From the IMG/VR virus record IMGVR_UViG_3300017971_002684, positions 1 through 53,606 of that record: 53,606 nt of DNA; one strand, given 5' to 3'. The position numbers were made by a program, and so were the translations under genes. The stretch's first letter is position 1. Each line of letters begins with the position of its first letter. Source of the DNA: a virus (taxonomy: Duplodnaviria; Caudoviricetes). Positions 22,257-50,113 of this stretch are shown piece after piece. The notes under the pieces are model-generated. The model saw nothing but the letters and a program-made list of their open reading frames with translations, made no database searches and was not told the DNA's origin.

Positions 22257-23048
22257 ATGATTGAGCAACAACTACAGTTTTCAGAGCAAAGCGTCAAGAT
22301 GGCTTTGAGTTCCAAGAGGTTCCTGGCTGAGGCGTGTGTGGAGACGGTCCTGATGGAAGCTGACTTCCCCCACATTCTGGAGCAGGTGCGCGGGTGGGAT
22401 TTGACCCGGAAAAAGCGCACGATCATGAATGTGTTGAAGACCCACACTCCAGCAGAGTGTGTTGATTTCAGGGGCTTGCGGATGTTCTCCACCACAGAAT
22501 GGTGGATTGCCATTGTCAAGTTGACCCCCACGTTCAGCACAGGACTGCGGAAGGACCAGGACGTGTTCCTGCTTTTGCGCGGCTGGAACAACGTGCATGG
22601 CATTGCTGTGGACTGTCCGTCTTTTGGGACCAAGGACATGCTGCAAGAGGAGATGGCGGAGAAGATTGAGCCCAAGCGTGACAAGGGCTACAGGGTGATC
22701 TTTACGCTGGAGAACCTTGCTCTGGGGACGGGTGGTGTTGCTCTGCCCGCCATTCCTGGCCTTTCTGAACCAGTGCCGGACCCCACCCTTTCATCCGTTG
22801 AGGAACTGATGAAGTCTGTGGATGAGGATGAGGAGGAAGAGGTCACACTGCCGCCCAAGGCTTCCAAGAAAAAGCCCAAGGTCAAAAAGAAAAGCGCCTC
22901 CAAGAAAAAGAAGGATGAGGAGAAGGTGAAGGTGGATGAGACACCGCAGCCATCCCCAGAAGAGGCGGACACTGCCCAGGAAGAGATGGAGCGCAAGAAG
23001 CGCCTGCGGGAAAAGATGAAAAAGAAGAGGAAAGAAAGTGAGTGGTAA
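22257..23048 (+). CDS. Hypothetical protein with SEW C-terminal tag
   Basis: GGAGG RBS before ATG 22257; ends RLREKMKKKRKESEW. Confidence 0.75.
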   Translation: MIEQQLQFSEQSVKMALSSKRFLAEACVETVLMEADFPHILEQVRGWDLTRKKRTIMNVLKTHTPAECVDFRGLRMFSTTEWWIAIVKLTPTFSTGLRKDQDVFLLLRGWNNVHGIAVDCPSFGTKDMLQEEMAEKIEPKRDKGYRVIFTLENLALGTGGVALPAIPGLSEPVPDPTLSSVEELMKSVDEDEEEEVTLPPKASKKKPKVKKKSASKKKKDEEKVKVDETPQPSPEEADTAQEEMERKKRLREKMKKKRKESEW

Positions 23049-24618
23049 ACTGAAACTACACATCCGCCCAGAGCGGTCTTCCATTCTGGAGGGGCTCAAC
23101 GCCAAGGCTCACAGCATTGTGAAGACCCTCTGCCGGTTCCGCCCCAAAGGGTTCCGGTTCTCTGAGAAGTACAAGAGGGGGCTCTGGGACGGGTGGATCA
23201 ATCTGGCAAAGACCTATGGCGTCAACAAGACCTACTTCCCCACGGGGCTGGCTCCGCAGGTCTACCAACTTCTGGAGAATGAGGGAGTGCGCCCCCAAGT
23301 AGAGAACCTGCGCGTCAAGCCCTCTCCTTCCCGCAAGCCTTTGGTAGATGATCTGGATGGGATCACGTTGCGTGACTACCAGGAGGAACTGGTCCTGTCT
23401 ATCACGGAGCCCACCATGATGTCAGACGGGATCTTCTCCTCCGTGGGTCCGGACTACATTCACATTTTTGATGGAACGGGGAAGCCCACGCACTACCGCA
23501 ATCCAGGGATGGGGATTTGGGACTCTGCCACCGGCTCCGGCAAGACGGAAGCTGCCGCCATGTTGGTGGGAAGACTGGCTGTCCCTACCCTCTTTCTGGT
23601 CTATGGAAATGACCTTGTGACCCAGACAGCAGAGCGGTTCCGTGCCCGCCTTGGCACCTGGATGAGGGACCAGGGTGTCCGTGTTGGAGTGACCATTGAC
23701 GGCAACCTCAACACAGGGTTCATCACCGTGGCGTCCAGTGCAACGCTGGCGGCGCTGGTCAAAAACAATGACAAAAAGACATTAAACTGGCTCAAGACAA
23801 TCCAGTTGCTCATCCTGGATGAAGCCCACCAGGGCGCAGCAGACCGGGTTCAGAACGTGGCAGGCAAGTGTCCAGCCTACTACAGGATCGGGATGAGCGG
23901 GACGCCCCTGAGCCGCTCAGACGGGCAAGACCTGAAGATTGTAGGAGCCTTTGGAGATGTGACTGTGAAGATCACCAACGCCCAGATGCTTGAGAAAGAA
24001 GTGATCCCCCCTGCCAAAATCTACCTGTTTCCAGTCAAGGGGGACATCAAAGCCCCCCGTGGGACGCCCTGGGATCGCATCTATGAGGATGGGGTGGTCT
24101 ATCATTCCCCCCGGAACCTGCTTATCATCCGGCTGGTCCAGCGTGCCTATGCAGAGGGCAAGCGTGTGCTGGTCATCTTCAAGCGGCACGCCCACGGGGA
24201 ACTGCTCTCCCAGCTTCTTTGGTGTGAGGAAGACGTGCATGGTGAGCACACATTCATCCCCCATGAGGTGTTGCAGGGCACCCCCATCCAGCATGAGCGT
24301 GTGGACGGGCGTGATGCAGAAGACCACCGGCAGGATGCGATCAAGCAGTTCCGGGCGGGGATCTTCAAGGTCTTGTTGGCTTCAGAAATTTTCAACACCG
24401 GGCTGGATATCCCGGAGGTTGACGTGTTGATCAATGCGGCTGGCTCCAAAGAAGTGATCCCGGTCAAACAGAGGCTTGGCAGGGGGCTCCGTGGTGACAG
24501 CTTGGAAATGTATGATTTTGCAGACCTACAGCACAAAACCCTTGCCTCACATGCGCGGGAGCGGCTGCGTATCTATCAGGGGGAGTCCTGCTTTGAGGTT
24601 TTGCCAGGAGAGTTGTAG
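23038..24618 (+). CDS. Superfamily 2 DEAH-box helicase (UvsW/XPB-like)
   Basis: LRDYQ, ATGSGKT, DEAH, SGT, GLDIPEVD and QRLGRGLR motifs. Confidence 0.92.
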   Translation: MSGKLKLHIRPERSSILEGLNAKAHSIVKTLCRFRPKGFRFSEKYKRGLWDGWINLAKTYGVNKTYFPTGLAPQVYQLLENEGVRPQVENLRVKPSPSRKPLVDDLDGITLRDYQEELVLSITEPTMMSDGIFSSVGPDYIHIFDGTGKPTHYRNPGMGIWDSATGSGKTEAAAMLVGRLAVPTLFLVYGNDLVTQTAERFRARLGTWMRDQGVRVGVTIDGNLNTGFITVASSATLAALVKNNDKKTLNWLKTIQLLILDEAHQGAADRVQNVAGKCPAYYRIGMSGTPLSRSDGQDLKIVGAFGDVTVKITNAQMLEKEVIPPAKIYLFPVKGDIKAPRGTPWDRIYEDGVVYHSPRNLLIIRLVQRAYAEGKRVLVIFKRHAHGELLSQLLWCEEDVHGEHTFIPHEVLQGTPIQHERVDGRDAEDHRQDAIKQFRAGIFKVLLASEIFNTGLDIPEVDVLINAAGSKEVIPVKQRLGRGLRGDSLEMYDFADLQHKTLASHARERLRIYQGESCFEVLPGEL

Positions 24619-24620
24619 AG

Positions 24621-25847
24621 ATGACCAAAGAAGTAGAAGGACAGCCGTTGGAAATCACCGCCGGTGCCGCCATCCTTGGGGAGAATGAGGCGGAGTCAAA
24701 GGAACTGGCGATCAAATCTGCCGCCACCATCATCATGCTGGATGAGGGGTGCAACATGGAGGAGGCGCTGGTCAAGGCGCGGCAGCAGATCACCCCCCAG
24801 ATTACTCCTCAGCCACCTCCAGAGGAGCCCCCAGTCCCACAAAATGAGGAGGTGGAGGATGCTGTGCTGATTGAGGCGGAAGAGGAGTGGGAGGAAGAGG
24901 AGTGGGAGGAAGAGGAACTGGAAGAGGAGCGCCCCCCGGTGGAGGTCTACTCCCCTGATGAATGGCAGCAGACCAGCACCGGGCACATGGCTGGGGAGCC
25001 CCTGGAACAGGCGGAAGATGACGGGCTCATTCCTGCCCAGGTTGTGGAGGCGTACAGGCCAGATCCCAAGACCCCCACCTGGGGTGTGGGCAAGCACGGT
25101 GAAGCCATCATCCTCTTTGAGGGGTGTAGCTGGCACAAGAATGAGGACCAGTGGTATTGCAATGACCTGACAGTGCCAGAGGATGAGGTTCCGCCTGTTC
25201 TGGAGGAGTTATGGGGCACAACGTCAAAGCCCGCAGAGCACAAGCCTGGAGAGCCCTGGCTTGGACCCAGCACCACCAAAAGTTCCCGCATGACCATCCA
25301 CTTTGAGGGGGAGGAGTGGTTCTACTCAAAGAAGCACATGCAGTGGTTTAGGGACGGCAAAAAGGTGGAAACAACGGAGGTGCCTGGTGTTGTGCGGGGC
25401 TATTTGGGGGCAGTCCACAAGGAAGCCAGAGCCATCCACCGGGAGAGCCCACCACCGTCCACAATGGTAGAAGAGGGGGAGTTGGAACTGGCTGGAGGGC
25501 TCCTGGAGTATGAGAAGGAGATGATTGGCAGAGCGGTAGCAAAGCCGATCCTGCCGGACTGGGTTCTGCGGACAATGGCAGTGACCTGGAGCCGGTGTCT
25601 TTCCGCCATGCAGGAGCGTGGTGAGTGGCAGGGAGCCCTGGCAAAATCCTTTCAGGCGGAAGCCTACCCTGACGGCTCCCTGATGCTCTCTCCTTTTGCT
25701 ATGCCCTCTGGTGTGGTCATTGTCACAGATGAAGACATCCGCGCCCCTTCCCGTGCTGCGGTAGCCCCCACCCCCTACACTGAGCCTGCCGCAGCGTCCA
25801 CCCCCAGCCGTGGCAAGAAAAAGCGCCGCAAGCTGTCCCTGGACTAG
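24621..25847 (+). CDS. Hypothetical acidic protein
   Basis: 408 aa, RBS present. Two similar 'I.FEG..W.....QW' segments; basic C-terminus. Confidence 0.7.
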   Translation: MTKEVEGQPLEITAGAAILGENEAESKELAIKSAATIIMLDEGCNMEEALVKARQQITPQITPQPPPEEPPVPQNEEVEDAVLIEAEEEWEEEEWEEEELEEERPPVEVYSPDEWQQTSTGHMAGEPLEQAEDDGLIPAQVVEAYRPDPKTPTWGVGKHGEAIILFEGCSWHKNEDQWYCNDLTVPEDEVPPVLEELWGTTSKPAEHKPGEPWLGPSTTKSSRMTIHFEGEEWFYSKKHMQWFRDGKKVETTEVPGVVRGYLGAVHKEARAIHRESPPPSTMVEEGELELAGGLLEYEKEMIGRAVAKPILPDWVLRTMAVTWSRCLSAMQERGEWQGALAKSFQAEAYPDGSLMLSPFAMPSGVVIVTDEDIRAPSRAAVAPTPYTEPAAASTPSRGKKKRRKLSLD

Positions 25848-25881
25848 AAAAATTCTGTCTTTTCGTATTAGATTCTAATAG
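25847..25881 (+). promoter_or_regulatory. Box + palindrome element
   Basis: GAAAAAT-N11-GTATTAG-ATT-CTAATAG. Confidence 0.85.
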
Positions 25882-25908
25882 ACCACCCCAAGACACAGGA
25901 GGTGAACC

Positions 25909-26367
25909 ATGCCCACTGTAGACATGGTTTTTGTGTGGCAAGATACCCCCGGAAAGATCAATGTGATCGTGCCGGTTCCCAACTCCCCCATCTGGATGAC
26001 CTGGCTGGAGAGGCAGGACGCCTCTTTGCGCCGGTGGGTTGACCCCCCTGGCTACTGGGTCTTTGATGAGTCCCTGCAACCGTCCCTCAATGAGCGGTTC
26101 ATTGCTTCCGGGTGGTTTGTGAATCACGGTCCACCAATGGGATGGTCCACCGGACCAAGCAATCACCGTGTGTTGGGTCCACCCACACTTGTCCCGGACA
26201 ACTACAAGACCCTGCACCTGCTTCCCTCTGCTCCAGAGGAAGTTGTCAAGGCGGCATACAAGGCGCTGATGAGGCTGGGGCACTCTGACAAGACCAATGG
26301 CTCAGATGAGCGGGCAAAGGCTCTCAATGAGGCGCGTGACGCCATCTACAAGGAGCGTGGTTGGTGA
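25909..26367 (+). CDS. J-domain (DnaJ-like) protein with HSD in place of HPD
   Basis: C-terminal 'YKTLHL.PSA..EVVKAAYKALMRLGHSDK....ALNEA'; AGGAGG RBS. Confidence 0.75.
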   Translation: MPTVDMVFVWQDTPGKINVIVPVPNSPIWMTWLERQDASLRRWVDPPGYWVFDESLQPSLNERFIASGWFVNHGPPMGWSTGPSNHRVLGPPTLVPDNYKTLHLLPSAPEEVVKAAYKALMRLGHSDKTNGSDERAKALNEARDAIYKERGW

Positions 26368-27029
26368 AGTGGCCTGACAAGGATGTGGTGGTTCCACAGG
26401 AGCCTCCACCCAAGAGGGAAAAGAAAAAGCGGGGGCTGTCCGTACAGGAGAGAGAAGAGGTGGTCCAGAAGGTCTGCTCCCAAGCTGTGGCGCCGCCAGC
26501 CCAGAAGCACGCCCAGCCCAGACGGGCGGCAAAGCAGGTGGCTCAACTCTACTCCCAGAAGCACGCTCTCTACCACCGGCACCGGGCAACTTCCTGGCAA
26601 AGAGCCATTGAGAACCGTGGCGTGCTGGGGTGTTGTGCCAAGGTAGTGGCGCAGGCTGATGTTCTCCAGGTTGAGGTTGAGGACTATGTGGAAGCCCAGT
26701 TCTGGTGGTTTGACACCGCTTTTGGGCGGGCTCCCAGCTACAAGGAACTGGCTGGACCAAAGGCCACCTACAGGTGGAAAGCATGGCGCGTGGCGCGTGT
26801 GCATGGAGAGGCGCACCAGAAGACTGTTCATGTGGCAACCGGCGGCACGTTCAACCCCCAGGATACTTCTGTGGCAGATGAACTGGAAGCTGAGCTGAAG
26901 ACGCTGGAGCGGCTGGTGAGGCAGTGGGGCTCAGAGGAGGAGGTCTGGAGACTCATGGGGGACCAAGGTGTGTTCTCAGATGCGTTCATGCAGACCCGCC
27001 CGCTTTGGGTGAAAATGACTGAAAAATGA
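26364..27029 (+). CDS. Hypothetical protein
   Basis: GTGA overlap with the upstream stop; ~221 aa. Confidence 0.65.
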   Translation: MKWPDKDVVVPQEPPPKREKKKRGLSVQEREEVVQKVCSQAVAPPAQKHAQPRRAAKQVAQLYSQKHALYHRHRATSWQRAIENRGVLGCCAKVVAQADVLQVEVEDYVEAQFWWFDTAFGRAPSYKELAGPKATYRWKAWRVARVHGEAHQKTVHVATGGTFNPQDTSVADELEAELKTLERLVRQWGSEEEVWRLMGDQGVFSDAFMQTRPLWVKMTEK

Positions 27030-27322
27030 GGGAGGATGAGATGACCCCAGAACAGATGTTTGAGGCGGCTGATGCTGCCCGTGTTAAGCTGCAAGACGAA
27101 CTGGAAGACAAAGGAATTGACGCCTATGTGTTCCTGGAGTTGCAGGTCACACCCTATGGCTTGATCGTGGTGCCCAACTTTGATGCTCATGGGACCATGC
27201 AGCAAGCCGTTGGGTTGGTTCAACTTTTGGACCGGCAACTGACAAGTTTTTTAGGATCGGATCGCTTGTTTCAAGGGGTGATGGTGACAACCATGTTCAT
27301 TGAGAAGTGCCGGGAGGAGTAG
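27026..27322 (+). CDS. Hypothetical protein
   Basis: ATGA-coupled small ORF. Confidence 0.6.
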   Translation: MREDEMTPEQMFEAADAARVKLQDELEDKGIDAYVFLELQVTPYGLIVVPNFDAHGTMQQAVGLVQLLDRQLTSFLGSDRLFQGVMVTTMFIEKCREE

Positions 27323-27583
27323 TTGGGGAGGCATACCTTGACCCGGCTGGACCAAGCGGTCAACCACTTCATTGCCGTGTGCCAACAGCAGGGCTTTGGC
27401 TTCCTGGGGGACGGGAAGGGAGTGAGTGTTGGTGGCTACTACAGGAATGATGGTGGGAAGGAGATTTGGGTCTACATGGACCCACGCTGGAGCCCCCAAC
27501 AGCGGGATGATTTTGTGAGCTTTTTCATGCTTGAGGGCTTAGTGCTGGACTGGCAAGGGTTCCCCCTCAAGATTAAGAAATAG
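27323..27583 (+). CDS. Hypothetical protein
   Basis: Fills the gap between neighbours; start uncertain (TTG). Confidence 0.5.
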   Translation: MGRHTLTRLDQAVNHFIAVCQQQGFGFLGDGKGVSVGGYYRNDGGKEIWVYMDPRWSPQQRDDFVSFFMLEGLVLDWQGFPLKIKK

Positions 27584-27595
27584 GAGACAAGAGGC

Positions 27596-28231
27596 ATGGC
27601 AGAGGACCAAGACGGCAAGCGTGAGGCGCTGGGTGTGGATGACTGGGGCTGGACAAAACCCAAGATCAAGGTGCCCAACTACCGGGATCTGCAACTCTAT
27701 GGTGGTGAGGACAAGAATGTGGAGGTGGAGCCTGCTAAGAGTACAGAGCAGAAGATGGCAGCACAAATCCGGGTGTTGCAGCACAACAACACGCGCCTGG
27801 AGGCGCGTGTGGCAGAACTGGAGCAGATGCTCTATGGCAAGCCTGCCCGGTCTATCATCCAGCCAAGAGTGACCGGCTTTGGCAAGACGCATGACCTGTG
27901 GGAAGGTGATGGGGTGGTGGTGGCTTTGCCTCCAGAGGGCACACCAGAAGACAGCACCGTTGCCATGAGCAGGCAGGTTGGGCTTTGGGCGTCCCGTCAA
28001 AGATTCTCTGTTCTGGTTGGGGTGGCGTCTAAAGGTGAGGAGCACAGCAAGGTGGAAATGCCCCTGGTGCCTGGTGTTGTGCAGGAGTGGTGGGCTCATG
28101 AACACAAGCGGGGCGTTGCTGTCTACAAAAGCCCTGCTTTTTCAACTGTAGAGGAGTATGACAAAGAAGACTCCTTCCGCAGTGAAGTGCTGGGGCGTCC
28201 ATACTTTGAAGATGAGGAGGACACATCATGA
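27596..28231 (+). CDS. Hypothetical protein with coiled coil
   Basis: 211 aa, GAGG RBS. Confidence 0.65.
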   Translation: MAEDQDGKREALGVDDWGWTKPKIKVPNYRDLQLYGGEDKNVEVEPAKSTEQKMAAQIRVLQHNNTRLEARVAELEQMLYGKPARSIIQPRVTGFGKTHDLWEGDGVVVALPPEGTPEDSTVAMSRQVGLWASRQRFSVLVGVASKGEEHSKVEMPLVPGVVQEWWAHEHKRGVAVYKSPAFSTVEEYDKEDSFRSEVLGRPYFEDEEDTS

Positions 28232-28818
28232 TCTGGGTCTACATCAACTGGTGGCTGGTTCTGGCGCTGTTTGTGCCGTTCTGGCTTTTGCAGAACATCA
28301 TCCATGAAATATCCCACGGGCTGGTGGTGTTCAGCCGGGGCTGGGGGTTCCAAATCTACCCGGTGTTTCACTGGGCACACAGGGACAATGGGCGGGCACG
28401 CTACTTCTGGAACCCTCCCCCGCGTCAGCAACGCAAGGTGGGGGAGTGGCAGTGGTATTTTGCCCGTGTGGTCTACAAGCAGGATGAGGGGGCAAAAGAC
28501 ATCACTCCCAAGGGCTGGCTTTTGGTTGCCCTGGCTCCGCGCATCACCAACACCATGTTGATGGTAGCCATGTTTGTGGACCACCAGATGACCCGCCCAG
28601 ACTCCTCCCTCCAGACCATCTATGCACTTTGTGGAGCCTGCCAGTTGGTAGATGGTCTTGCTGGTATCCTCTCCATTTTCTGCTGGTGGGAAGACCGCAA
28701 ACACACAGACATTTGGCACATCTATGAGCGGAGTGGGCTCTCCAGGCGCACCATTCAGATCCTTGCTGCCGGGTGGTTTCTTTTGATGGCTGTGATTTTT
28801 TGCGCCCCTCTCTACTAG
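28228..28818 (+). CDS. Membrane protein with HExxH motif (M50-like zinc peptidase candidate)
   Basis: Hydrophobic segments, IIHEISHG, 'VALAP' and a downstream 'TD'. Confidence 0.6.
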   Translation: MIWVYINWWLVLALFVPFWLLQNIIHEISHGLVVFSRGWGFQIYPVFHWAHRDNGRARYFWNPPPRQQRKVGEWQWYFARVVYKQDEGAKDITPKGWLLVALAPRITNTMLMVAMFVDHQMTRPDSSLQTIYALCGACQLVDGLAGILSIFCWWEDRKHTDIWHIYERSGLSRRTIQILAAGWFLLMAVIFCAPLY

Positions 28819-28838
28819 CTTCTGTCAGGAGGCTACGC

Positions 28839-29243
28839 ATGAACTACATAGAAATGATGGAGTATCTGGTGGAGGTGATGGGGCAGGCGGCAGCGCAGGC
28901 CACCGTCACCCTACCTCATTTTTGCCTGAAGGGTATTCTGGGGGCGCTCCGGGCCGACTGCCAGGAGTCTGCCCTGATTCTGGAGAATCTGCCGGAGGAC
29001 AAGCTGCGTGAGTTGATCCTGGACAATGATGAGCGCAACAAGGTGCTGACTCCCTTTTTCACAATGGTCTTTTTTGTCCGGACGTTGATGGACCTGAAGC
29101 TGGTGAAGGATGACGGGATGACGTGGTTTGCCAAGATTGTGTTCCAGATTCAGCCGCTCTTGGTGATGGCAACCCAGATGATGGCGGAAGGGATTTTGAC
29201 GGAGCCCCTCTGGGAGTACCAGACAAAGGAGTTTGAAGCATGA
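28839..29243 (+). CDS. Hypothetical protein
   Basis: AGGAGG RBS before ATG 28839. Confidence 0.65.
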   Translation: MNYIEMMEYLVEVMGQAAAQATVTLPHFCLKGILGALRADCQESALILENLPEDKLRELILDNDERNKVLTPFFTMVFFVRTLMDLKLVKDDGMTWFAKIVFQIQPLLVMATQMMAEGILTEPLWEYQTKEFEA

Positions 29244-29431
29244 CGGTTCCTGTCAGGTTGGTAGCCCTGCTCAAGCAGATAGGCGGTGGGCAGGTCAAAC
29301 GTCCCAACAGTTTGGAGGAGTTAATCCAGGAGGCACGTCAACGGGGTTTTGATGACGTTGCCAACTGGTTGGAAGCCAACCCAGCTCAGTTTGAGTTTTG
29401 GATGGCTGCGATTGCAACCGCCCCCAAGTAG
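29240..29431 (+). CDS. Small hypothetical protein
   Basis: ATGA-coupled 63-aa ORF. Confidence 0.55.
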   Translation: MTVPVRLVALLKQIGGGQVKRPNSLEELIQEARQRGFDDVANWLEANPAQFEFWMAAIATAPK

Positions 29432-29453
29432 GGGGCAGAGGAGTCTTTTTACT

Positions 29454-30836: not shown

Positions 30837-30869
30837 AAATTTGCCCGTGAGTCTATTAGTTTCTAATAG
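30835..30869 (+). promoter_or_regulatory. Box + palindrome element
   Basis: GAAAATT-N11-CTATTAG-TTT-CTAATAG. Confidence 0.85.
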
Positions 30870-30883
30870 AAAGGGCAAAGGAA

Positions 30884-31927
30884 ATGAGTTTTGACGCACG
30901 TTCATTTTTGGCTGCACACGGCATTCCTTACAAGCTGTCACAGGGCGGGAGCGGAGATGAAGCCCGTATGCCTTGCCCAGTCTGTGGCGGCTCCAAAAAT
31001 CCTTTTGCAATCAACTTCTCCAAGGGCACGGCTGTCTGCTACAGGTGCCAGTGGGTTCCCAAAGACCCCAAGGATCTGGTCCAGCAGTTGACCCACTGCA
31101 ATCCATTCCAAGCAGAGGTGATCGCCCACAAGTTCCGTGGGGACAGGGGGCGCTCCGGCGGCTCCTTCACTGCGGCGGTGCGCTCCCGGCTCTCTGGGGG
31201 AAAGATGCGTGGGCAGATACCCTCAGCCCAGGAGCCGGTCCATGTGGAAGAGAAACCCCCCTTGGAGTGGCCTGCCAGCTACTACCCACTTGGACACCCG
31301 GATATCCCAACTGTGAACGCCTATGCCTTTTCACGGGGCTTTTCAATGAAGCTGATGGTGCGGCTGAGGTTTGGGGGGTGTCTCTTTGGCAGGTATGCAG
31401 GTTGCTTGGTGATCCCAGCTATGCACGGGGATGAGCTGATGTTCTGGCAGGCGCGTGATGCGCTCAACCGGGAGAACTTCCCCAAGTACCGCTCTCCCAA
31501 AGGGTACTCACCGGCGGTCTGCCTGTTCAACCTGGATGAAGCCACAACCTACCCGGAGACGGTGATCTGTGAGGGTGTTTTCTCAGCCATGAGGGTGGGG
31601 CAGGATGCGGTTGCCTGCTTTGGCAACAAAATCAGCAGGCACCAGATCAAATTGCTGATGGACCGTGGCGTGACCAGGGTGGTTTTGTGTTTTGACCCGG
31701 ACACATGGACACTTCCAAGGGCAGTCATTGAGCGGGGAATTGTGGGGATGAAGCCCCCCATCTACAATGCTATGATGTTCTTGATGGACGCCTTTGAGCA
31801 GGTGCGTGTGGTGAAGCTGAAGGACGGTGATCCTGATGACACAGGCCACCCCAAAATGCGGGAACTGATTGACAACGCCCCAGTGGTAAAAACACGCGCA
31901 GACATGGCGCGTTTGATGATGTCTTGA
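30884..31927 (+). CDS. DnaG-like primase
   Basis: Zn finger CPVC..CYRC, KY, and TOPRIM motifs ICEGVFSA and FDPD. Confidence 0.88.
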   Translation: MSFDARSFLAAHGIPYKLSQGGSGDEARMPCPVCGGSKNPFAINFSKGTAVCYRCQWVPKDPKDLVQQLTHCNPFQAEVIAHKFRGDRGRSGGSFTAAVRSRLSGGKMRGQIPSAQEPVHVEEKPPLEWPASYYPLGHPDIPTVNAYAFSRGFSMKLMVRLRFGGCLFGRYAGCLVIPAMHGDELMFWQARDALNRENFPKYRSPKGYSPAVCLFNLDEATTYPETVICEGVFSAMRVGQDAVACFGNKISRHQIKLLMDRGVTRVVLCFDPDTWTLPRAVIERGIVGMKPPIYNAMMFLMDAFEQVRVVKLKDGDPDDTGHPKMRELIDNAPVVKTRADMARLMMS

Positions 31928-31937
31928 GGAGGATGTG

Positions 31938-33640: not shown

Positions 33641-33642
33641 GC

Positions 33643-35762: not shown

Positions 35763-36155
35763 ATGACCACCAACGTCAACAACAATCCCCAGCCCCAAGA
35801 CGCCCCCGTTGCCGTGATGAAAGACTCCCAGCTCAACAAGCTGGCTGGCCTGCTCATGGGCTACTACAACGGCAAACCTGGAACCATTGAGATTGTGATG
35901 GATACCTGTGGCAAGTGGCCTGCCACCCGCTACTATGAGGATGTCAACCGGGTCATTAAGGCTGAGGACGCCTCCTACTTCCTGCCCCTCCTGGAGCAGA
36001 TCGGCGTCACCAACACCCAGGGTTCCCCTGTTGGACCCAAGCTGGAGCGTGCTGCCCGGTTGGTGGGGCTCCACATCAACATCCGCTACAGTGACACCAC
36101 AGGCCAGGATGAAATCCGCCTTTCCCATGACCCTGATCAATTCATTGAAGAGTGA
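35763..36155 (+). CDS. Hypothetical protein
   Basis: AGGAG RBS before ATG 35763. Confidence 0.65.
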   Translation: MTTNVNNNPQPQDAPVAVMKDSQLNKLAGLLMGYYNGKPGTIEIVMDTCGKWPATRYYEDVNRVIKAEDASYFLPLLEQIGVTNTQGSPVGPKLERAARLVGLHINIRYSDTTGQDEIRLSHDPDQFIEE

Positions 36156-36188
36156 AAAATCCCCTTCCCGCCTATTAGATTCTAATAG
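36154..36188 (+). promoter_or_regulatory. Box + palindrome element
   Basis: GAAAAAT-N11-CTATTAG-ATT-CTAATAG. Confidence 0.85.
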
Positions 36189-36207: not shown

Positions 36208-36792
36208 ATGCCAACCTTGAACCCTATGACCATTGAAGAGGCTACAGACGCCAGTTTGAGAGGGGAGAACTGGTTCCTCTACATGATTTGTGTCACAGCC
36301 AAGAGCAACAAGTTCTGGGCAACCTGGGGCAACGGTACGGAAACCAGTTTTGTGCGCTATGGTGCCCGTGGCGGGACGCCCACCACTATCATCAAAGACA
36401 AGAACTACAGCTTCAAGACTGCACTCAAGAAGATGAACCGCAAGAAGGACCACTACATCATGCCTGCGGACCCGGAGAAGGTGCTGGAGTGGGACAGCGG
36501 AACCCTCAGCTTTGAGGCGCAGCTTGCGGACCCACCCCCCCCGGCAGCTACCGCTATGGCGGCAACCCCCAAAGGGACGGTTGAGGTCAAGGCGCGGCGC
36601 AAGCGGAAGACCCGCAGGGCTGGAGGAGCGGCGGAACAGTTTGCCTACAAGCAGGGCAAGAAGGTGGAGGAGTCACTGGACCTGGACCGGGTGGTCATCA
36701 AAGATGAGCCTGCCAAGCCGGAGGAAACCCTCTCCCCAGAGGAGCGTCTGCGGCGGAAAATGAAAAAGAAACAACGGGCTTCAGAGTGGTGA
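36208..36792 (+). CDS. WGR-domain-like protein with SEW C-terminal tag
   Basis: AGGAGG RBS; 'KSNKFW...VRYGARG' resembles a WGR domain; ends RLRRKMKKKQRASEW. Confidence 0.65.
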   Translation: MPTLNPMTIEEATDASLRGENWFLYMICVTAKSNKFWATWGNGTETSFVRYGARGGTPTTIIKDKNYSFKTALKKMNRKKDHYIMPADPEKVLEWDSGTLSFEAQLADPPPPAATAMAATPKGTVEVKARRKRKTRRAGGAAEQFAYKQGKKVEESLDLDRVVIKDEPAKPEETLSPEERLRRKMKKKQRASEW

Positions 36793-39786: not shown

Positions 39787-39789
39787 CAC

Positions 39790-39818: not shown

Positions 39819-39915
39819 AGGGGGGTCATTTGAAAGCAGGAATGACGCAGGAAAAACACAGGAAAAGTTTTTAGTTGGTGCCTACCCTTTTTGTTCAGGC
39901 ACCTGGAGGTGAAAG

Positions 39916-41642: not shown

Positions 41643-41644
41643 GG

Positions 41645-42708: not shown

Positions 42709-42995
42709 ATGATCAAGCTAGTTGAACCCCGTGTGGAGTTGTTGACTCCACCCACTGAGATCGCGTCCTTATCCGCTTTCTTTCCTTGTGCCTGCTGAAG
42801 GAACTGCATACACTGGCTCCGTGCCTTTTTGATGACCTCTTGGAAGCCTTGGACAAACTGCGCCAGAATGGGGAGGGGGTTGCCACGGCATTCATGAAGT
42901 GGGTAGAGGAGCCGGTGGACCAACCCTTGACCCTCACGGAAGCTGCCCAGGACTCCCAAGGGTTTTTGTGTGGATACAAACCCCCAAAGGAGTAG
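42709..42995 (+). pseudogene. Possible thyX relic with large internal deletion and frameshift
   Basis: RBS plus MIKLVEPRVELLTP, then in another frame IRFLSLCLLKELHTLAPCLFDD; these resemble the ThyX N- and C-termini. Confidence 0.4.
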
Positions 42996-42999
42996 GAAC

Positions 43000-43704
43000 A
43001 TGGAAACATCTCTCCCCCCTTGTTGGATTGACCCACCGGATGGTCCGCCCCAGCGCATCATTGTTGAGGGGCTGATTGGAGCCGGGAAGACCAGCCTTTC
43101 CAAAGCCCTGTCTGTTTTGACTGGCTACCACCTCATGGAGGAGCCCGTTGAGGACAATGAACTGCTCCCCCTCTTCTATGAAGACCCGGAGCGGTGGGGT
43201 TTTGCTATGCAGGTGAAGATGCTCACAAGCCGTCTTGCAATGGAAAAGGCGGCAACCTACATGGTCCAGGCAGGGCTGGTCCAGGGAGCCATTGCAGACC
43301 GCTCTCTGGGGGGAGACACCGTGTTTCTGGAGGTCAACTCCATCATTGGCAACATCTGTCCCCAAGAGCGTGACCTGTACCTCAACCTCTATGAGCAGAT
43401 GAAGATCACATGCCCCTACCCGGACGTGGTGCTCTATCTGCGTGTATCACCAGACGTGATCCGGGAGCGCATCCGTGACCGTGGGCGTGAGTTTGAACTG
43501 CCTTTGACGGAAATGGAGAACAACTACCTGGAACTGCTGGAAGAGGCATACTCCCGCTTTTGCTCTGCCATGACCCGCCACACAACGGTTGTCATGCTGG
43601 ACTGGGATGAGTTTTTGCCAGTGGAGGACGTGTGGTGGCAGGTGCTTGAGCAGTGGGACCAGGAGAACCAGAACCGCCACCAAAAGCGGCTCATGCGCTG
43701 GTAG
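43000..43704 (+). CDS. Deoxynucleoside kinase (dNK family)
   Basis: EGLIGAGKT, EEPV, DRS and RIRDRGREFE motifs. Confidence 0.9.
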   Translation: METSLPPCWIDPPDGPPQRIIVEGLIGAGKTSLSKALSVLTGYHLMEEPVEDNELLPLFYEDPERWGFAMQVKMLTSRLAMEKAATYMVQAGLVQGAIADRSLGGDTVFLEVNSIIGNICPQERDLYLNLYEQMKITCPYPDVVLYLRVSPDVIRERIRDRGREFELPLTEMENNYLELLEEAYSRFCSAMTRHTTVVMLDWDEFLPVEDVWWQVLEQWDQENQNRHQKRLMRW

Positions 43705-44448: not shown

Positions 44449-45069
44449 ATGAAAGCTGAAGGATTGACCATCATCCTGGATGTGCAGGGAGAAGACATTG
44501 ACCTGAAAGCACAGCTTGATATCAATGAAGCCAACCTGATGGGGGAGTTGGCAAGCCAGCCCGCGTGGTACGCCTACTGGGCAAGCCTGCTGGCTCAAGC
44601 CAACCTGGACCTGGAGCATGAGAAGGGGGAGTTTGACAGCTTCAAGGCTGAGATTTCCGCAGAGATACGCAAGCGGCTGGTCCGTGATGAAAAGAAGGTC
44701 ACGGAGAAGATGGTGGAGACAGAGGTGTTCATGGACACCAGGATTGCTGCCAAGAAAGCCAAGTTGCTGGAGAAAAAACGGGCTGTGGCGTACCTGTCTG
44801 TGGCAGAGAAAGCCTTTTCCCAGCGCATGAAAGCCCTGGAGACAATGGGGTTTCTGGAGGGGCGCCAGAGGGACGCCTCCCGCACGCCGGGGCAGGAGAC
44901 AGCCACCGGGCGGAACAGTGTGCAGGCCACCAGCAGGCAGGAGTTGCAACGGGAACTTGACAACATGAGTAACGGCTCCAGCACGCCGGACAACCCGGAC
45001 CCGGAACTGGATTTTGTGACCGTTGATCCGGCTATCTGTCCCCATCCTGGGGGGCGCAAAAAAAAGTGA
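44449..45069 (+). CDS. UvsY-like recombination mediator candidate
   Basis: Helical protein with 'L.I.E.NL..E...QP..Y..W' and 'KVTEK.VE'; sits beside SSB and recA. Confidence 0.55.
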   Translation: MKAEGLTIILDVQGEDIDLKAQLDINEANLMGELASQPAWYAYWASLLAQANLDLEHEKGEFDSFKAEISAEIRKRLVRDEKKVTEKMVETEVFMDTRIAAKKAKLLEKKRAVAYLSVAEKAFSQRMKALETMGFLEGRQRDASRTPGQETATGRNSVQATSRQELQRELDNMSNGSSTPDNPDPELDFVTVDPAICPHPGGRKKK

Positions 45070-45078
45070 TCTTTTTGT

Positions 45079-45113
45079 GAAAAATTGCTCATCCCCATAC
45101 TAGATTCTAGTGA
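45079..45113 (+). promoter_or_regulatory. Box + palindrome element with symmetric substitutions
   Basis: GAAAAAT-N11-ATACTAG-ATT-CTAGTGA. Confidence 0.75.
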
Positions 45114-45125
45114 GCCAGGGGGGAT

Positions 45126-45170
45126 GCAGGAAAAACACAGGAAAAACCAAGGAAAAACAAAGGAGAAACC
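45126..45170 (+). repeat. 11-nt-period AGGAAAAAC leader repeat (x4)
   Basis: CAGGAAAAACA CAGGAAAAACC AAGGAAAAACA AAGGAGAAACC ATG. The first 20 nt also occur at 39847-39866 and, with one mismatch, at 41671-41690. Confidence 0.85.
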
Positions 45171-46364
45171 ATGAGTGAACATGACTTGGATTTTGTTGGT
45201 GTCAAGACTGAAGACGTTGCCCATTGGAAAAAACAGGAAAAGCCCAAAAAGAGCCAGAGCCCGGTGGCATGGATCACCCTGAAGGACGGTGATGAAATGC
45301 TCCTGCGGTTGCTGCCGCCCTGGACCTCTGAGGGTTATCACGCCCACAAGCCGCACCTGCGGACCTTCCAGCACTGGGATGTTGGTGCCAAGAAGGAACG
45401 GGTCATCTGCCCCCAGAAGGTGACAGATGACATGCCCATTGAGACGGTCCCTTGCTACATCTGTGAGCAGGTGGAAATGCTGTTCAAGACCGGCAATCCC
45501 CTGGATGAGCAGAAAGCCCGCCGGATGCGGGCAGGCCAGTCCTTCATCTACCAGTGCGTTGACCGGGATGACCCGGAGTGGACGGAGTATGATGATCAAG
45601 CCAAGGAAAAGCCGGAACTGGTAGGCACGCCCAAAATCAAGTTCCTCCGGTTGCCGTGGCAGGGACACAGCCAGATCCTTGACTTCTTTGCGGACCCGGA
45701 CTATGGGGAGATTTGCCACCCTCTGAACGGGCTGGACATCAAGGTGAGCCGCTCTGGTTCTGGGCTGGAAACAGAGTACAACATTCTGCCAAAGCGCCAC
45801 AATAGCCCCCTGCTTGCCCTTCCCAGTGGCGATCCTGACATCCCCGCCATCAAAGGCGTACTGGGCAAGATGGACCAGTTGGACGATCATCCCTTTTTCC
45901 GTTACAAGGACTATCAGCAGACCCGCGCCATCTACTTGGGCAAGACGGAAGAGGCGGGAGAGAGCACCGGGCAGGTCACTGGTGGGACCAGCCACCCTGC
46001 CCTTCCCCCGCACCAGCAAAGCGTTCCGTACAATGAATGGGTCCAAAAGGCGCAGGCTTCTGAACTGGAAGCCATGACCCATGAGCAGGTTGCAACCTGG
46101 GGCGGCTGGCAGGTAGAGCAGATCCCTGAGTGCTACGCAAAAGAGGTGAACCACACGGACTCTGGCTGCGCGGCTTGCCCCCTTCATGTTCCCTGTGCAG
46201 TGACCTACCACGCGGAGCACGGCAGCTACAGCATCAGTGCGGACCCGGTTGCCACGGGCGGGAAGCCCCTCCCCAAGATTGGTGGCAAGGCCAGCACCAA
46301 CGGTGAGGTTTCTGGTGGCGTGGCTGAGATGACCGCCATGCTGGACGCCAAAGCCAAAGAGTAA
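45171..46364 (+). CDS. gp32-like single-stranded DNA-binding protein
   Basis: LRLLPP, ICP...PCYIC Zn site, and G.DI...RSG.GLETEY motifs. Confidence 0.75.
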   Translation: MSEHDLDFVGVKTEDVAHWKKQEKPKKSQSPVAWITLKDGDEMLLRLLPPWTSEGYHAHKPHLRTFQHWDVGAKKERVICPQKVTDDMPIETVPCYICEQVEMLFKTGNPLDEQKARRMRAGQSFIYQCVDRDDPEWTEYDDQAKEKPELVGTPKIKFLRLPWQGHSQILDFFADPDYGEICHPLNGLDIKVSRSGSGLETEYNILPKRHNSPLLALPSGDPDIPAIKGVLGKMDQLDDHPFFRYKDYQQTRAIYLGKTEEAGESTGQVTGGTSHPALPPHQQSVPYNEWVQKAQASELEAMTHEQVATWGGWQVEQIPECYAKEVNHTDSGCAACPLHVPCAVTYHAEHGSYSISADPVATGGKPLPKIGGKASTNGEVSGGVAEMTAMLDAKAKE

Positions 46365-46441: not shown

Positions 46442-46465
46442 ACACCAAGACACAGGAGTTGCGTG

Positions 46466-47521
46466 ATGACCAAGAAAAAAGATGAACCCAAAAAAGGACT
46501 GTCAACCCTTCCGCCGGAGGATGCGCCAAAGAAGCCCCTTTCTGAGAAGGACAAAGCCATCCAACTTGCGATCACTGCCGTTGAAAAGCAGTTTGGGCGC
46601 GGGACGATCATGGACATGGGCAAGACCACCCGTGAGGAGGTGCCGGTGATCCCCTCTGGTTCCTGGGGGTTGGACCGGGCGCTGGGCATTGGTGGCTACC
46701 CGCGTGGGCGCATGATAGAGGTTTTTGGACCGGAAGCCAGCGGCAAGACCACCCTCACCCTGCACATGATCGCAGAAGCCCAGAAGACCGGCGGGCGGGC
46801 TCTCTTTGTGGACGCAGAGCACGCTCTGGACCCGGACTATGCAGAGAATGTTGGCGTCCGCATGGATGAACTGCTTTTGACCCAGCCGGACTATGGAGAG
46901 CAGGCGTTGGAGATTGTGGACCTGATGGTCCGTTCTGGTGGCTTTGACATTGTGATTGTGGACTCTGTGGCGGCGCTGGTCCCCAAGGCGGAACTGGAGG
47001 GGGACATGGGGGACACCCATGTTGGATTGCAGGCGCGGATGATGAGTCAGGCCATGCGGAAGCTGGCGTCTGTGGCAAGCCAGCACAAGACTGCTATTGT
47101 CTTCATCAACCAGCTACGCAAGAAGATCGGAGTCATGTTTGGCAACCCGGAGACAACCACCGGCGGTGAGGCGCTCAAGTTCTACTCCTCTGTGAGGTTG
47201 GATATCCGCAAGATTGGAACCATCAAGCGGCGGGATGAGGTGATCGGATCGCAGGTGCGCGTGAAGGTGGTCAAAAACAAGCTGTTTCCACCGTTCAAGA
47301 CCGCAGAGTTTGACATCATCTGGGGCAAAGGGGTCAACCGGGTGGGGGAGGTTTTTGACCTGGCCTGCCAGTTTGACATCATTGAGAAAAGAGGCTCCCA
47401 CTACAAGTTTGGCACGGATGCGCTGGGGCAGGGCAGGGACAACGTGTGTGCCGCCTTGCAGGAGGAGCCTGACATGCTGGAGCAGATTGAGAAATCTGTC
47501 AAAGAGAAACTGGAGGAGTGA
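46466..47521 (+). CDS. recA: RecA recombinase
   Basis: [27 protein letters not shown] and [21 protein letters not shown] motifs. Confidence 0.98.
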
Positions 47522-48684
47522 TGAAAGCAAAATCTGCCCGCTTTTTGGTGCTCAGTGACCTGCACGCCCACACCCACAAGCGGTTCTCTCACGTCAACCA
47601 AGAGGGAAACAATAGCCGGTTGCAGGTAGCCCTGGACGTGTTGCGCTACATCCCCCAGCTTGCAAAGCGCCTGGGCGTGCGGGATGTGTTCTTTGCCGGT
47701 GATCTGTTTGAAACCAAGGGGCGTGTGCCGGTCAAGGTGATGAACGCAGTCTACAGGGAACTGTACCAGTGGGGGGAGGCAGACCTGCGCCTTGTGATGA
47801 TACCAGGCAACCACGATCTGGCGGTGCGTGACGGCTCAGAAACAGCCATACAGGTCTTTGGAGCCCTCAAGGGTGTCAGCACCTACGTTGCGCCCCATTC
47901 AACGCTCTGGGGGCTCTCCCGTGAGCCACAGGTGGCATTGCGGTGCGTACCCTACCGGGACCATTTCACAGAAGAGGATTTTGCTGTGCCAGAGTTTGCA
48001 CCGGGCACTCCCCGCATTTGTCTGGCTCACGGGCTGGTGCGTGGGAGCCGGTTCATGCCCCATGATGAGACACCAAAAGAGGTTTGGGAAAAGGCACATG
48101 GGCAGATCCGTCCATCCTGGCTGGACGGTTTTGACGCTGCCATTGTGGGTCATGTTCACCTTCCACAAGTGCTGGGAGCCCGTCAACACATTCTGGTCCC
48201 AGGACAGCCATACCAACAACACCCCTATGATGCAGGACAGCGCCGCAGTGCGTGGCTTGTGGAAGTAGAGGGGGGCAGGGTGAAGTTCACCCCTCACCCC
48301 ATCCCCTGTCTTCCTGAGTTCTTTCTTGCTAAATTAACAGGTGATTGTTCCTTGGAGTGTCCCGTTGACCTGGAGATCAATGGGAACATCATTCTGCTCC
48401 AGCCAGAGGACCACACCGTGCTGGACAGCGTGATGAAGGAAGCCAAGGAGAGGCTCAATTCTTTAGGAGCGGCGCATGTATCAATCACACCCCCAGCATT
48501 GGTTGACCCCTTGGGTGAGCAAGCTCATGAAATTAGGCTTGAAATGGATACCAACCAACTACCTCAAGACGTTCTGGGCAACGTGCTGTCTTCAGGTCTT
48601 GTTCCGCTTAGAGGGTTTGCCCCACAAGAACTTCAAAGTGAGGGTGAAGAGATACTGAAGGAGGCTGCACAGGAGGATCAATGA
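47521..48684 (+). CDS. SbcD/Mre11-like nuclease (gp47-like)
   Basis: SDLH, AGDLF, GNHD, AHG and GHVH metallophosphoesterase motifs. Confidence 0.9.
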   Translation: MKAKSARFLVLSDLHAHTHKRFSHVNQEGNNSRLQVALDVLRYIPQLAKRLGVRDVFFAGDLFETKGRVPVKVMNAVYRELYQWGEADLRLVMIPGNHDLAVRDGSETAIQVFGALKGVSTYVAPHSTLWGLSREPQVALRCVPYRDHFTEEDFAVPEFAPGTPRICLAHGLVRGSRFMPHDETPKEVWEKAHGQIRPSWLDGFDAAIVGHVHLPQVLGARQHILVPGQPYQQHPYDAGQRRSAWLVEVEGGRVKFTPHPIPCLPEFFLAKLTGDCSLECPVDLEINGNIILLQPEDHTVLDSVMKEAKERLNSLGAAHVSITPPALVDPLGEQAHEIRLEMDTNQLPQDVLGNVLSSGLVPLRGFAPQELQSEGEEILKEAAQEDQ

Positions 48685-49220: not shown

Positions 49221-49230
49221 CCATCCCCGT

Positions 49231-49265
49231 GAAAAATTCAAAATCAGCGTATTAGCTTCTAACAG
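49231..49265 (+). promoter_or_regulatory. Box + palindrome element
   Basis: GAAAAAT-N11-GTATTAG-CTT-CTAACAG. Confidence 0.8.
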
Positions 49266-49342
49266 GAGAGGTCTGCCTGCCGCAGAGCAAACAGGAGTAG
49301 CAGGGCAGCAGGCAGACCACAACTTTGTTTCAGGAGGAGGTG

Positions 49343-50113
49343 ATGACTGTACCAACGGATGACCTGATGGTGTTTAGAACCCTTGGGTGCCCCATTGTGG
49401 ATGTTGGGATCGTGGGTCCAGAGTCAAGCGGGATGCGCGGCTCAGAGAACGGGCACCTGTTCATCTCTGTGCCTCTGGAGCATACACAGCCCAGGAGCAT
49501 ACACTGCTGGGATGGGGCTACACATCAATGGGTGGCGGTGGGGAACTACAATGAGTTTGCAGACAAGAAGCTGCGCCATGCTACGCTTGCCCGTATCCGT
49601 TGCATTCTGGAAGGGCGCCCGCCCATCTGGGCAGAGCGCACCTACCCCTACAATGGAAGTGAACTGGGACCAGCGGAGCCTCCCTCCCCGGAGCCCTCCG
49701 GTGGTGCTTTCCGCTCAGAGGGAGAGTTGTCCCCAGTGGAAGAGGAGCCCAAGCCCAAGCTGAGGCGCGGACCCCGGTTCCCCTTTGGTGCGTCTCAAGG
49801 CACCTTGTATGAAGACCCGGAGACGGGCGTGGTCTACAAAAAGGGAGGGATGGGGTGGACCCGGTGGGGGCACAAGGACGATCCACACGTTCAGCCTGGG
49901 ACCACGGAATTCACGGAGCCAATCCCCTCATGGAAGACCATTGATGAGGTGCGGGCAGAAGAGGGCTTGCCTCCACTGAAAGAGGCGTTGGGGGGACAAC
50001 AGACATTGGTGGCTGCGGGTCCGCCCCAAGTAGCCAGGGAAGACCCAGAGGTGGAGAAAAAAAAGCGCCTGAAGGAGAAGATGGCAAAGAAGAGAAAGGA
50101 GAGTGAGTGGTGA
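49343..50113 (+). CDS. Hypothetical protein with SEW C-terminal tag
   Basis: AGGAGGAGG RBS; ends RLKEKMAKKRKESEW. Confidence 0.7.
   Translation: MTVPTDDLMVFRTLGCPIVDVGIVGPESSGMRGSENGHLFISVPLEHTQPRSIHCWDGATHQWVAVGNYNEFADKKLRHATLARIRCILEGRPPIWAERTYPYNGSELGPAEPPSPEPSGGAFRSEGELSPVEEEPKPKLRRGPRFPFGASQGTLYEDPETGVVYKKGGMGWTRWGHKDDPHVQPGTTEFTEPIPSWKTIDEVRAEEGLPPLKEALGGQQTLVAAGPPQVAREDPEVEKKKRLKEKMAKKRKESEW

Follow-up and report, generated by a model that had tools for sequence, protein, structure and literature searches.

A shared C-terminal Ser-x-Trp tail on small proteins of a large tailed phage: a candidate docking signal

Why should three proteins encoded at separate sites in one phage genome, and alike nowhere else in their sequences, end in nearly the same helical peptide with a terminal Trp? 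The question is raised by IMG/VR virus record IMGVR_UViG_3300017971_002684 (53,606 bp, linear, 57% GC, estimated completeness 33%), the whole of which was analysed and is referred to here as the window; its source is a large tailed phage, none of whose relatives has been cultured. A sequence-only reading of the window had proposed that the shared tail delivers diverse, co-regulated proteins to one partner. We conclude that a portable, selected C-terminal signal exists and that the proteins carrying it are not wholly unrelated.

A selected peptide at the extreme C-terminus

The three tagged genes and their tails are as follows; families A-D are described in the next section.

22257..23048, + strand: tagged gene 22257, family B, 263 residues (from the open reading frame, an AlphaFold2 model and structure searches)
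22995..23048, + strand: tail KKRLREKMKKKRKESEW and stop codon of gene 22257
36208..36792, + strand: tagged gene 36208, family A, 194 residues, with a WGR-domain head (~1-95, assigned by profile), a linker and the tail
36739..36792, + strand: tail EERLRRKMKKKQRASEW and stop codon of gene 36208
49343..50113, + strand: tagged gene 49343, family C, 256 residues, between the sbcD-like and sbcC-like genes
50060..50113, + strand: tail KKRLKEKMAKKRKESEW and stop codon of gene 49343

The tails RLREKMKKKRKESEW, RLRRKMKKKQRASEW and RLKEKMAKKRKESEW close the open reading frames (ORFs) that end at 23048, 36792 and 50113, respectively. The pattern ...RL.xKM.KK...SEW stands at the C-terminus of exactly three ORFs of the window. 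A six-frame scan likewise gives exactly three ORFs of at least 30 residues with an SEW end, which reproduces the tails of the sequence-only reading at the same positions; the sole other SEW is internal to a minus-frame ORF (28544-28843). Ungapped BLOSUM62 scores between the three C-terminal 15-mers are 70, 61 and 52, compared with 22 for the next best pair of gene ends among the 48 called genes of the window and a maximum of 30 among 200,000 random internal 15-mer pairs, which places the shared tail far beyond chance. Identical tail residues that have synonymous codons are encoded differently in 4 of 9, 5 of 13 and 4 of 7 cases, and the tail Ser has the codon AGT in two of the genes but TCA in the other; as had been proposed, the peptide is therefore what is kept, and a recent gene conversion is unlikely. 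When the three proteins are compared by BLASTP, the tails alone align (E values of 2e-4, 1e-7 and 0.004). Pro, Glu and Lys together account for fractions of 0.55, 0.35 and 0.35 in the 40 residues preceding the tail against a background of 0.18, in agreement with the P/E/K-rich linker noted earlier. The ATG starts previously assigned to the tagged genes follow GGAGG sites, and the longest-ORF starts lie further upstream.

An exhaustive phmmer search with gene 36208 found eight homologues (29-42% identity, E values of 3.6e-9 to 9e-4), all of which end in a related tail (e.g. ...RKKRSEW, ...RRKSSDW and ...KRRAKAEW). Three viral records reached through the alignment of this WGR family were examined whole. 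They come from related, collinear phages, with protein identity summarized as 35-59%.

G001: 13.4 kb, estimated completeness 8%, 2 tagged genes
G002: 143.9 kb, estimated completeness 89%, ~10 tagged genes
G003: 104.7 kb, estimated completeness 65%, 5 tagged genes

G002 is collinear with the window across 26 genes at 24-59% protein identity (mostly 30-59%). A six-frame scan of it shows six clear tails (...RRMSEADW, ...KRASRSEW, ...RRREEKTEW, ...KRREEDSEW, ...KKREENSDW and ...RRREEESDW) and four weaker variants, namely three ...SKW paralogues and ...SYSRW on a methyltransferase. The tail of family B is kept in all four members, from the window, G002, G003 and P0014, a protein from elsewhere that was found by the family-B profile and ends ...GKRKVESDW. 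C-terminal enrichment in homologues, on which the earlier proposal had been staked, is thus seen in all eight homologues of the WGR family and in three further members of family B.

A hidden Markov model (HMM) was built from nine WGR-family tails alone and run on the 393 called proteins of the four records. Its best 13 matches all lie at distance 0 from the C-terminus and nine of them are non-WGR proteins, so the HMM scan that had been suggested bears out the C-terminal enrichment. Run on 4,852 six-frame stop-to-stop segments, the same model gives nine best matches that are all terminal and all in tagged genes. Genes ending in [ST]xW number 3, 2, 8 and 5 in the four records, compared with 0.075, 0.022, 0.30 and 0.23 expected from the internal rate. 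The tail is a genuine peptide, selected for at the very end of the chain, and the most constrained part of the tagged proteins.

A logo from 25 distinct tails, counted back from the last residue (-1), has the following main positions.

Position -14: Leu, 19 of 25
Position -10: Met, Ala, Ile or Leu (hydrophobic), 23 of 25
Position -7: Lys or Arg, 25 of 25
Position -3: Ser, 22 of 25 (Ser or Thr, 23 of 25)
Position -2: Asp or Glu, 18 of 25
Position -1: Trp, 25 of 25 (the criterion by which the tails were selected)

Across the tagged proteins, the last 17 residues carry a net charge of between 0 and +7, the window tails having +5 to +7. Charge alone is therefore not what is kept, and 'basic' fits the dialect of the window better than the motif as a whole. 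From the earlier description of a portable basic helix with a terminal Trp, the helix (as modelled by AlphaFold2), the portability and the Trp are retained. The tails also differ between genomes: tails of different families (A-C) from the same genome have a mean score of 59.1 (n = 7), compared with 32.3 (n = 10) for orthologous tails of these families across genomes, and when genome labels were shuffled within families 135 of 20,000 permutations reached the observed value. A genome-specific reader or an old homogenization would give this pattern of dialects.

No member of the WGR family was found in 185,579 bacterial and archaeal species genomes, and tblastn of 22257 and of the WGR homologue P0003 against phages gave no match. 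A word-indexed protein search with 36208 returned only itself among 214 candidates, and the final 50 residues of 22257 likewise retrieved nothing but their own protein among 12; such searches are poorly sensitive for tails, since 49343 was not returned either. A family-B profile search matched three of 7,459 candidates, these being 22257 itself, its G003 orthologue and the new member P0014. The degenerate DNA pattern for K-M-x-K-K-x3-S-E-W-stop had no match in viral contigs. A slightly looser one matched 49 loci in metagenome contigs, the sole genuine one (L027) belonging to the same phage; an antitoxin-like ORF (L016) and a low-GC bacterial ORF (L026) were rejected as chance look-alikes. Contig L027 (15,061 bp) is a second assembly, 100% identical to window positions 49745-52113, and if collinear would carry the genome ~11 kb past the end of the window. 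Searches for similar loci based on UvsW found none, and those based on CobT found nothing beyond G001, G002 and G003.

A terminal Trp is found in five of 50 genes of the window, compared with 0.9 expected. It is also present in the deoxynucleoside kinase (42970-43704, ...KRLMRW) and in a small conserved protein with a C-terminal J domain (25909-26367 in the window, 115525-116001 in G002), which ends ...KERGW or ...QERGW; the HPD motif of the latter is intact in G002 and has become HSD in the window.

Heads of the tagged proteins

The bodies of 20 tagged proteins from the four records, compared by BLASTP after removal of the tails, form four families and eight singletons.

Family A: the WGR family, in four genomes
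Family B: 22257 and its orthologues
Family C: 49343 and one tagged G002 gene (a weak link, E 2e-4)
Family D: three G002 paralogues

By hhalign, family A is linked to one singleton only, the tagged protein G1_2278 (89% probability). With G1_2278 joined to the WGR family, ~11 groups without mutual sequence similarity remain; families A and B are matched at a probability below 20%. When the three tagged proteins of the window and 13 further ones were searched against Pfam and PHROGs, the sole family matched was a methyltransferase PHROG, by G2_43222.

Gene 36208 itself does not match the Pfam WGR family (PF05406) even at E values up to 10, and a six-frame PF05406 search of the window record gave no match. 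All eight of its homologues match this family at E values up to 1 (best 1.7e-6), with three that were re-scanned singly scoring 13.7-19.1 bits, under the curated 22-bit cut-off. The family-A profile matches the N-terminal WGR-type domain of 2ra8_A with an E value of 1.8e-7, and the pattern KFW...YG.xG..G...K.F...KGY is conserved in the family. Because the homologues match Pfam WGR and the family profile matches 2RA8, we assign gene 36208 as a WGR protein at the level of sequence profiles. The stand-alone WGR heads found here have no catalytic domain.

The AlphaFold2 model of family B, from an alignment of four sequences, has a mean predicted local distance difference test (pLDDT) score of 71.2 and consists of a confident head (residues 1-155, with blocks at ~85-95), a disordered linker (~159-233) and a terminal tail helix (237-260). 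In a VIA-align search with the 22257 head, WGR domains are found in the top ten of 48,161 chains, with Z scores of 6.0 for 2ra8_A (root-mean-square deviation 2.0 over 66 aligned residues), 5.9 for PARP3 (2eoc), 5.9 for PARP1 (2cr9) and 5.3 for 4dqy_C; Z scores under 8 are regarded as middling, the best row is an unrelated chain at 6.3, and other unrelated chains have values close to those of the WGR domains. The top match of the 22257 model in BFVD is a phage WGR_MMR_like protein (E 3.2e-3), and four of its ten Atlas neighbours are WGR clusters (TM score 0.37-0.42). A Foldseek search of the model against the PDB gave nothing at E values up to 0.001. For 49343, single-sequence prediction gave a pLDDT of 47.5 with a helix at residues 235-255 as the sole confident element, and an Atlas search gave nothing. 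Two of the three heads of the window thus probably share a WGR-like fold, the second by its model. Given the probably WGR-like head of 22257 and the WGR paralogue G1_2278, the tagged set may in part be an old paralogous family, the heads of which diverged beyond sequence recognition while the tail stayed. The proposal of unrelated bodies is upheld by BLASTP, which finds no sequence similarity between them, and is undercut by the WGR assignment of 36208 and by the weak structural matches of the 22257 head.

Gene neighbourhood and promoters

Gene identities in the window were taken from Pfam or PHROGs, and those closest to the subject are listed.

23038-24618: UvsW-like helicase
29349-30836: DnaB-like helicase
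30884-31927: primase
31935-33209: beta clamp
36854-38056: CobS
38053-39786: CobT
39916-40614: region-2 sigma factor
45171-46364: gp32-like single-stranded DNA-binding protein (SSB)
46463-47521: RecA
47518-48684: SbcD-like gene
50601-52517: SbcC-like gene

Deoxynucleoside and thymidylate kinases, two DNA methylases and a ferritin are also encoded, and no Rfam family was found in the window. Megablast of positions 22000-40000 against GenBank phages gave no match, and the large terminase of the nearest relative has at most 29% identity to that of any GenBank phage. Between 44388 and 46463 the longest ORF (minus strand, 44595-46220) is spurious; by homology to G002, the true genes there are on the plus strand, at 44449-45069 and the gp32-like SSB gene. 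CobS has ~140 extra N-terminal residues with a weak match to a Ros/MucR-type zinc finger (residues 38-70, E 0.0026). G002 (L055-L062) encodes a family-A DNA polymerase with an intein, a TnpB/IS605 OrfB-like protein, ArdA, a B12-dependent ribonucleotide reductase and a 1,005-residue protein with repeated DnaJ CXXCXGXG zinc fingers.

The tagged genes keep company with replication and recombination genes. In all three genomes concerned (window, G002 and G003) the UvsW-like helicase gene is immediately preceded by the family-B gene, the WGR gene is upstream of cobS-cobT in three of four records (window, G001 and G003), with a second tagged gene between them in G001 and G003, and family C follows sbcD in both genomes that have it (window and G002). 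One G002 tagged gene precedes dnaB. Relative to the window, G002 has a 14-kb insertion separating the family-C tagged gene from sbcC.

The palindrome yTATTAGnnnCTAATAG occurs at 15 intergenic sites of the window (29 strand-matches compared with 0.15 expected), at 2578, 7396, 10090, 13330, 15516, 17111, 22219, 25866, 30854, 36173, 36822, 41646, 46426, 49250 and 50576. The 16-bp element lies 0-30 nt ahead of the ribosome sites of plus-strand genes, and 93 nt ahead of 49343. By inspection, a GAAAAAT-like box precedes eight of the 15 palindromes by 11-12 nt. At three of these eight sites (boxes at 22200, 36154 and 49231) the first gene to follow is a tagged one, as the sequence-only reading had stated.

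22198..22234, + strand: GAAAAAT box and palindrome TATTAGGTTCTAATAG, upstream of 22257
36152..36188, + strand: GTGAAAAAT box and palindrome TATTAGATTCTAATAG, upstream of 36208
49229..49265, + strand: GTGAAAAAT box and palindrome TATTAGCTTCTAACAG, upstream of 49343

The other five box-bearing sites head recA, the primase gene, cobS, the J-domain gene and one small ORF, and the tail-fibre-like, ferritin, methylase and large NosD-like genes have a palindrome without a box. The tagged genes of the window lie interspersed among replication and recombination genes and share their promoter class, in line with the co-regulation proposed earlier. A scan for consensus sigma-70 promoters at the box and palindrome sites gave nothing. 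The short palindrome regions have RNA folds no more stable than those of shuffled sequences (z of -0.3 to -1.3); a GC-rich leader hairpin between palindrome and gene at 49343 (49266-49342; 111-nt stretch, minimum free energy -38.8 kcal/mol, z -3.0) is matched in stability by one of 200 shuffles. The palindrome of the window is absent from the relatives, which have other palindromes: G002 has GTTAGG(A/T)CCTAAC in at least eight upstream regions and a GTCAGAAAAAG box in six, and G003 has a TTCAGTGACTGAA-like motif in three. The pattern points to an operator or promoter element that is particular to each lineage and evolves together with a phage factor. The same absence led us to set aside the palindrome as the target of the tail.

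Function of the tail and comparison with known systems

The strict position at the end of the protein, the [ST]-x-aromatic-COOH core, the fixed hydrophobic positions of the helix and the genome dialects argue that a protein pocket reads the free terminus, and speak against generic charge-driven binding. The reading that we favour, at a probability of about 0.45, is that the tail is a docking motif read by one shared partner during the replication phase. That the tail binds a protein, that the free carboxylate belongs to the epitope, and when and where the tail acts are inferences. The tail would be a short linear motif consisting of a helix of ~17-20 residues with a free Ser-x-Trp carboxy-terminus, and would form the constant part of clade-specific, small adaptor-like proteins. 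Their folded heads would vary, those of two or more families having a DNA-sensing WGR fold or one resembling it, and most of the proteins, not all, would have a hydrophobic-poor linker before the tail. The arrangement of head, linker and tail is, by analogy, that of tethered adaptors. One protein partner would read all the tails of a phage and co-evolve with them. It would most likely be a phage-encoded component or a host hub active in the replication phase, since the tagged genes share promoters and interleave with replication and recombination genes. Two candidate partners were set aside, the phage beta clamp because its gene was not found in the sequenced parts of G002 or G003, which have tails, and the N-terminus of the gp32-like SSB because its alignment shows no tail-like cooperativity motif.

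Several points weigh against a shared docking partner. Recognized enzymes have no clear tail (one methyltransferase has a weak variant), whereas in hub systems of the clamp or SSB type enzymes are the clients. The dialect signal comes from small numbers and is contributed mostly by the window itself, and similarity of tails within a genome could result from old gene conversion instead of co-evolution with a reader. If most heads are WGR-like, common descent explains why head and tail occur together, although it would not account for the tail being kept better than the rest. A hydrophobic-poor linker is missing from several tagged proteins of the relatives. Finally, in two of the three tagged genes of the window the tail DNA holds the ribosome site or start of the next gene: gene 22257 overlaps the GTG start (23038) of the UvsW-like helicase gene directly downstream, and the ORF after gene 49343 has its GTG start at 50107, within the tail codons. 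Of 16 tagged genes in relatives, three overlap the next gene by 7 nt, two abut it and six are separated from it by 13-24 nt. Tail DNA that doubles as the start region of the next gene implies that some nucleotide constraint is mixed in.

Taken to its extreme, this last point would leave the peptide without any function, as the by-product of gene conversion or of a translational-coupling cassette in which a purine-rich ribosome site and a GTG or TTG start are made from Glu/Asp-Trp codons. Downstream ORFs do start within the tail codons of 22257, 49343 and three tagged genes in relatives, and a further eight of the 16 there have gaps of 0-24 nt. However, gene 36208 is monocistronic, flanked by two box and palindrome sites just upstream of cobS-cobT; a promoter follows it in place of a coupled gene, and yet it keeps the peptide with different codons. 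Conservation also reaches 14 residues upstream despite 60-75% divergence of the bodies, and the synonymous differences argue against a recent conversion event. This explanation is already largely refuted and is very improbable. A Lys/Arg-rich helix and charged linker might instead add affinity for DNA or RNA, with the Trp stacking on exposed bases, which we regard as unlikely. The +5 to +7 tails of the window and several Lys-rich linkers would suit such a role, as would the two head families that are WGR or WGR-like (WGR contacts DNA breaks in PARP1-3 according to entry titles, e.g. 4dqy, PARP-1 with a DNA double-strand break) and the location of tagged genes among recombination genes. Nine of the 20 tagged proteins, however, have a tail charge of just 0 to +2, and the acidic residue at -2 (18 of 25) beside a free carboxylate would be unfavourable near phosphates. 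Generic binding would need neither the position-specific Leu at -14, hydrophobic residue at -10 and Ser at -3 nor an absolute end, and DNA leaves the genome-specific dialects unexplained.

A degron requires a strictly C-terminal signal. As a degron or unfoldase handle, the tail would be read by a host AAA+ protease or remodeller for timed turnover or adaptor tethering; the basic C-terminal tags of ClpX substrates (MuA type) and SspB, with its domain, linker and tethering peptide, are precedents. The conserved stretch, helical and at least 14 residues long, is longer than typical degrons, and this role seems quite improbable. We give capsid loading similarly little weight. Here the terminal helix would bind the procapsid interior, and the tagged proteins would be packed and then injected. 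The layout of cargo, flexible linker and C-terminal peptide is shared with cargo-loading systems, the tagged proteins resemble many internal or injected proteins in being small orphans that have no enzymatic domain, and in McdB a Trp in a C-terminal motif docks a disordered adaptor to a protein shell (PMC11321042). Against this, the tagged genes belong to the replication and recombination module and have its promoter class and not the box-less palindrome sites, which are those of the tail-fibre, ferritin, methylase and large NosD-like genes. There is no conserved protease site before the tail, Glu at -12 being present in just ten of 25, and no capsid, scaffold or prohead-protease gene was recognized in the window or G002 with which tails could be compared.

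A specific and far-fetched candidate for the partner is the phage CobS-CobT pair, for which the tails would be handles, with the Ser-Asp/Glu-Trp terminus at the von Willebrand metal-ion adhesion site of CobT; WGR-headed, fast-evolving adaptors would then aim the AAA+ motor at DNA-bound or other targets. In three of four records cobS is immediately preceded by one or two tagged genes, cobST is one of the gene pairs common to all four tail-bearing records and the DxSxS site of the window CobT is intact and invariant in all four orthologues. The evidence is thin, as the cobS-adjacent tagged genes may be a single inherited arrangement. If this were true, viral cobST in the clade would be a machine that remodels clients according to an address code, instead of, or in addition to, helping a cobalt chelatase. 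The published view is that viral cobST hijacks host CobN (PMC8651126); a free MIDAS face of CobT is described in a report on the CobST motor structure (bioRxiv 10.64898/2026.10.09.757910).

Under the docking reading favoured above, the tail would be a clean, lineage-wide example of its kind, with an epitope in which Ser-x-Trp-COOH follows a helix that has Leu, Met/Ile and Arg at set positions, occurring several times per genome and in a dialect of each genome's own. Portable terminal docking peptides organize replication, capsid loading and proteolysis in well-studied phages. The identity of the reader would give the first functional handle on ~11 groups of orphan proteins and a first role to stand-alone viral WGR domains, and might yield a small, transferable tag with which proteins could be recruited in phage-infected cells. 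Searches of open-access full text found no description of the tail motif or of phage proteins combining WGR with such a tail. The motif itself is apparently undescribed, whereas portable C-terminal docking peptides are a known kind.

Among such peptides, the SSB tip (DDDIPF) follows a folded domain and a disordered linker, and its last aromatic residue and carboxylate dock in the partner; T7 gp2.5 and gp4, which are unrelated replication proteins, share the same kind of interchangeable acidic Phe-ending tail. In these cases the tails are acidic and belong to a hub or to enzymes, whereas the tail described here is mostly a basic helix ending in Ser-x-Trp on small orphan proteins. An acidic run ending in I-P-F on an SSB defines the former; the present tails are basic or neutral, end in S-x-W and are on non-SSB proteins. 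The gp32-like SSB ends in DDDIPF or DEDIPF in G001 (L069, 9071-10255) and G003 (23652-24920) and has no tip of this type in the window or G002. The classical tip on the relatives' own SSB thus coexists with the tail as a separate system, which leaves the SSB analogy drawn earlier as a likeness and weakens it as a claim of membership. Sliding-clamp motifs (QL[SD]LF and the gp45-binding C-termini of T4) place one short motif on many unrelated proteins that bind one hub, but have no sequence resemblance to the tail, and a QL[SD]LF-like pentapeptide is absent from all 25 tails. Ends resembling clamp motifs are found in the window on an N6/N4 DNA methylase (15540-17075, QQLSFFK) and on an orphan (21608-22192, NQGSLFS).

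Encapsulin cargo peptides, the C-terminal helices with which phage scaffolding proteins bind the coat, and the T4 capsid targeting sequence are portable terminal peptides that bring diverse cargo to a protein shell. The T4 signal is N-terminal and is cleaved at L/I-x-E, whereas the present motif is always C-terminal and has Leu at -14 followed by Glu at -12 in at most ten of 25 tails; encapsulin peptides have another consensus, and the gene context and promoter class here are those of replication genes. Closer in layout are SspB, with its ClpX-binding tail, and F-box proteins, in which a variable head, a linker and a constant docking element tether clients to one machine; they have no homology to the tagged proteins. 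The tails also fit the [ST]-x-hydrophobic-COOH form of class I PDZ and PTS1-type C-terminal ligands (Ser or Thr at -3 in 23 of 25 and Trp at -1 in all 25), and no PDZ or TPR family is among the Pfam hits of 49 window and 113 G001-G003 phage proteins (108 of them from G002). With respect to WGR proteins (PF05406; PARP1-3, PDB 2RA8), the 36208 head is a member by profile and the 22257 head probably has a similar fold by its model; the tail is not a described feature of this family.

McdB (PMC11321042) is a mostly disordered, charged adaptor with very low sequence identity outside a C-terminal motif, the invariant Trp of which is needed for docking to the carboxysome. Its Trp is near, and not at, the C-terminus (in R(V/I)WPD or in D-rich last ten residues), and McdB is a single family with the carboxysome shell as its target and a ParA-type ATPase as its partner. 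In the present tails Trp is likewise invariant, in a surrounding consensus unlike that of McdB, and the Pfam scans found no ParA-type gene. McdB is the nearest published analogue that we found, a C-terminal motif with an invariant Trp that docks an otherwise variable adaptor.

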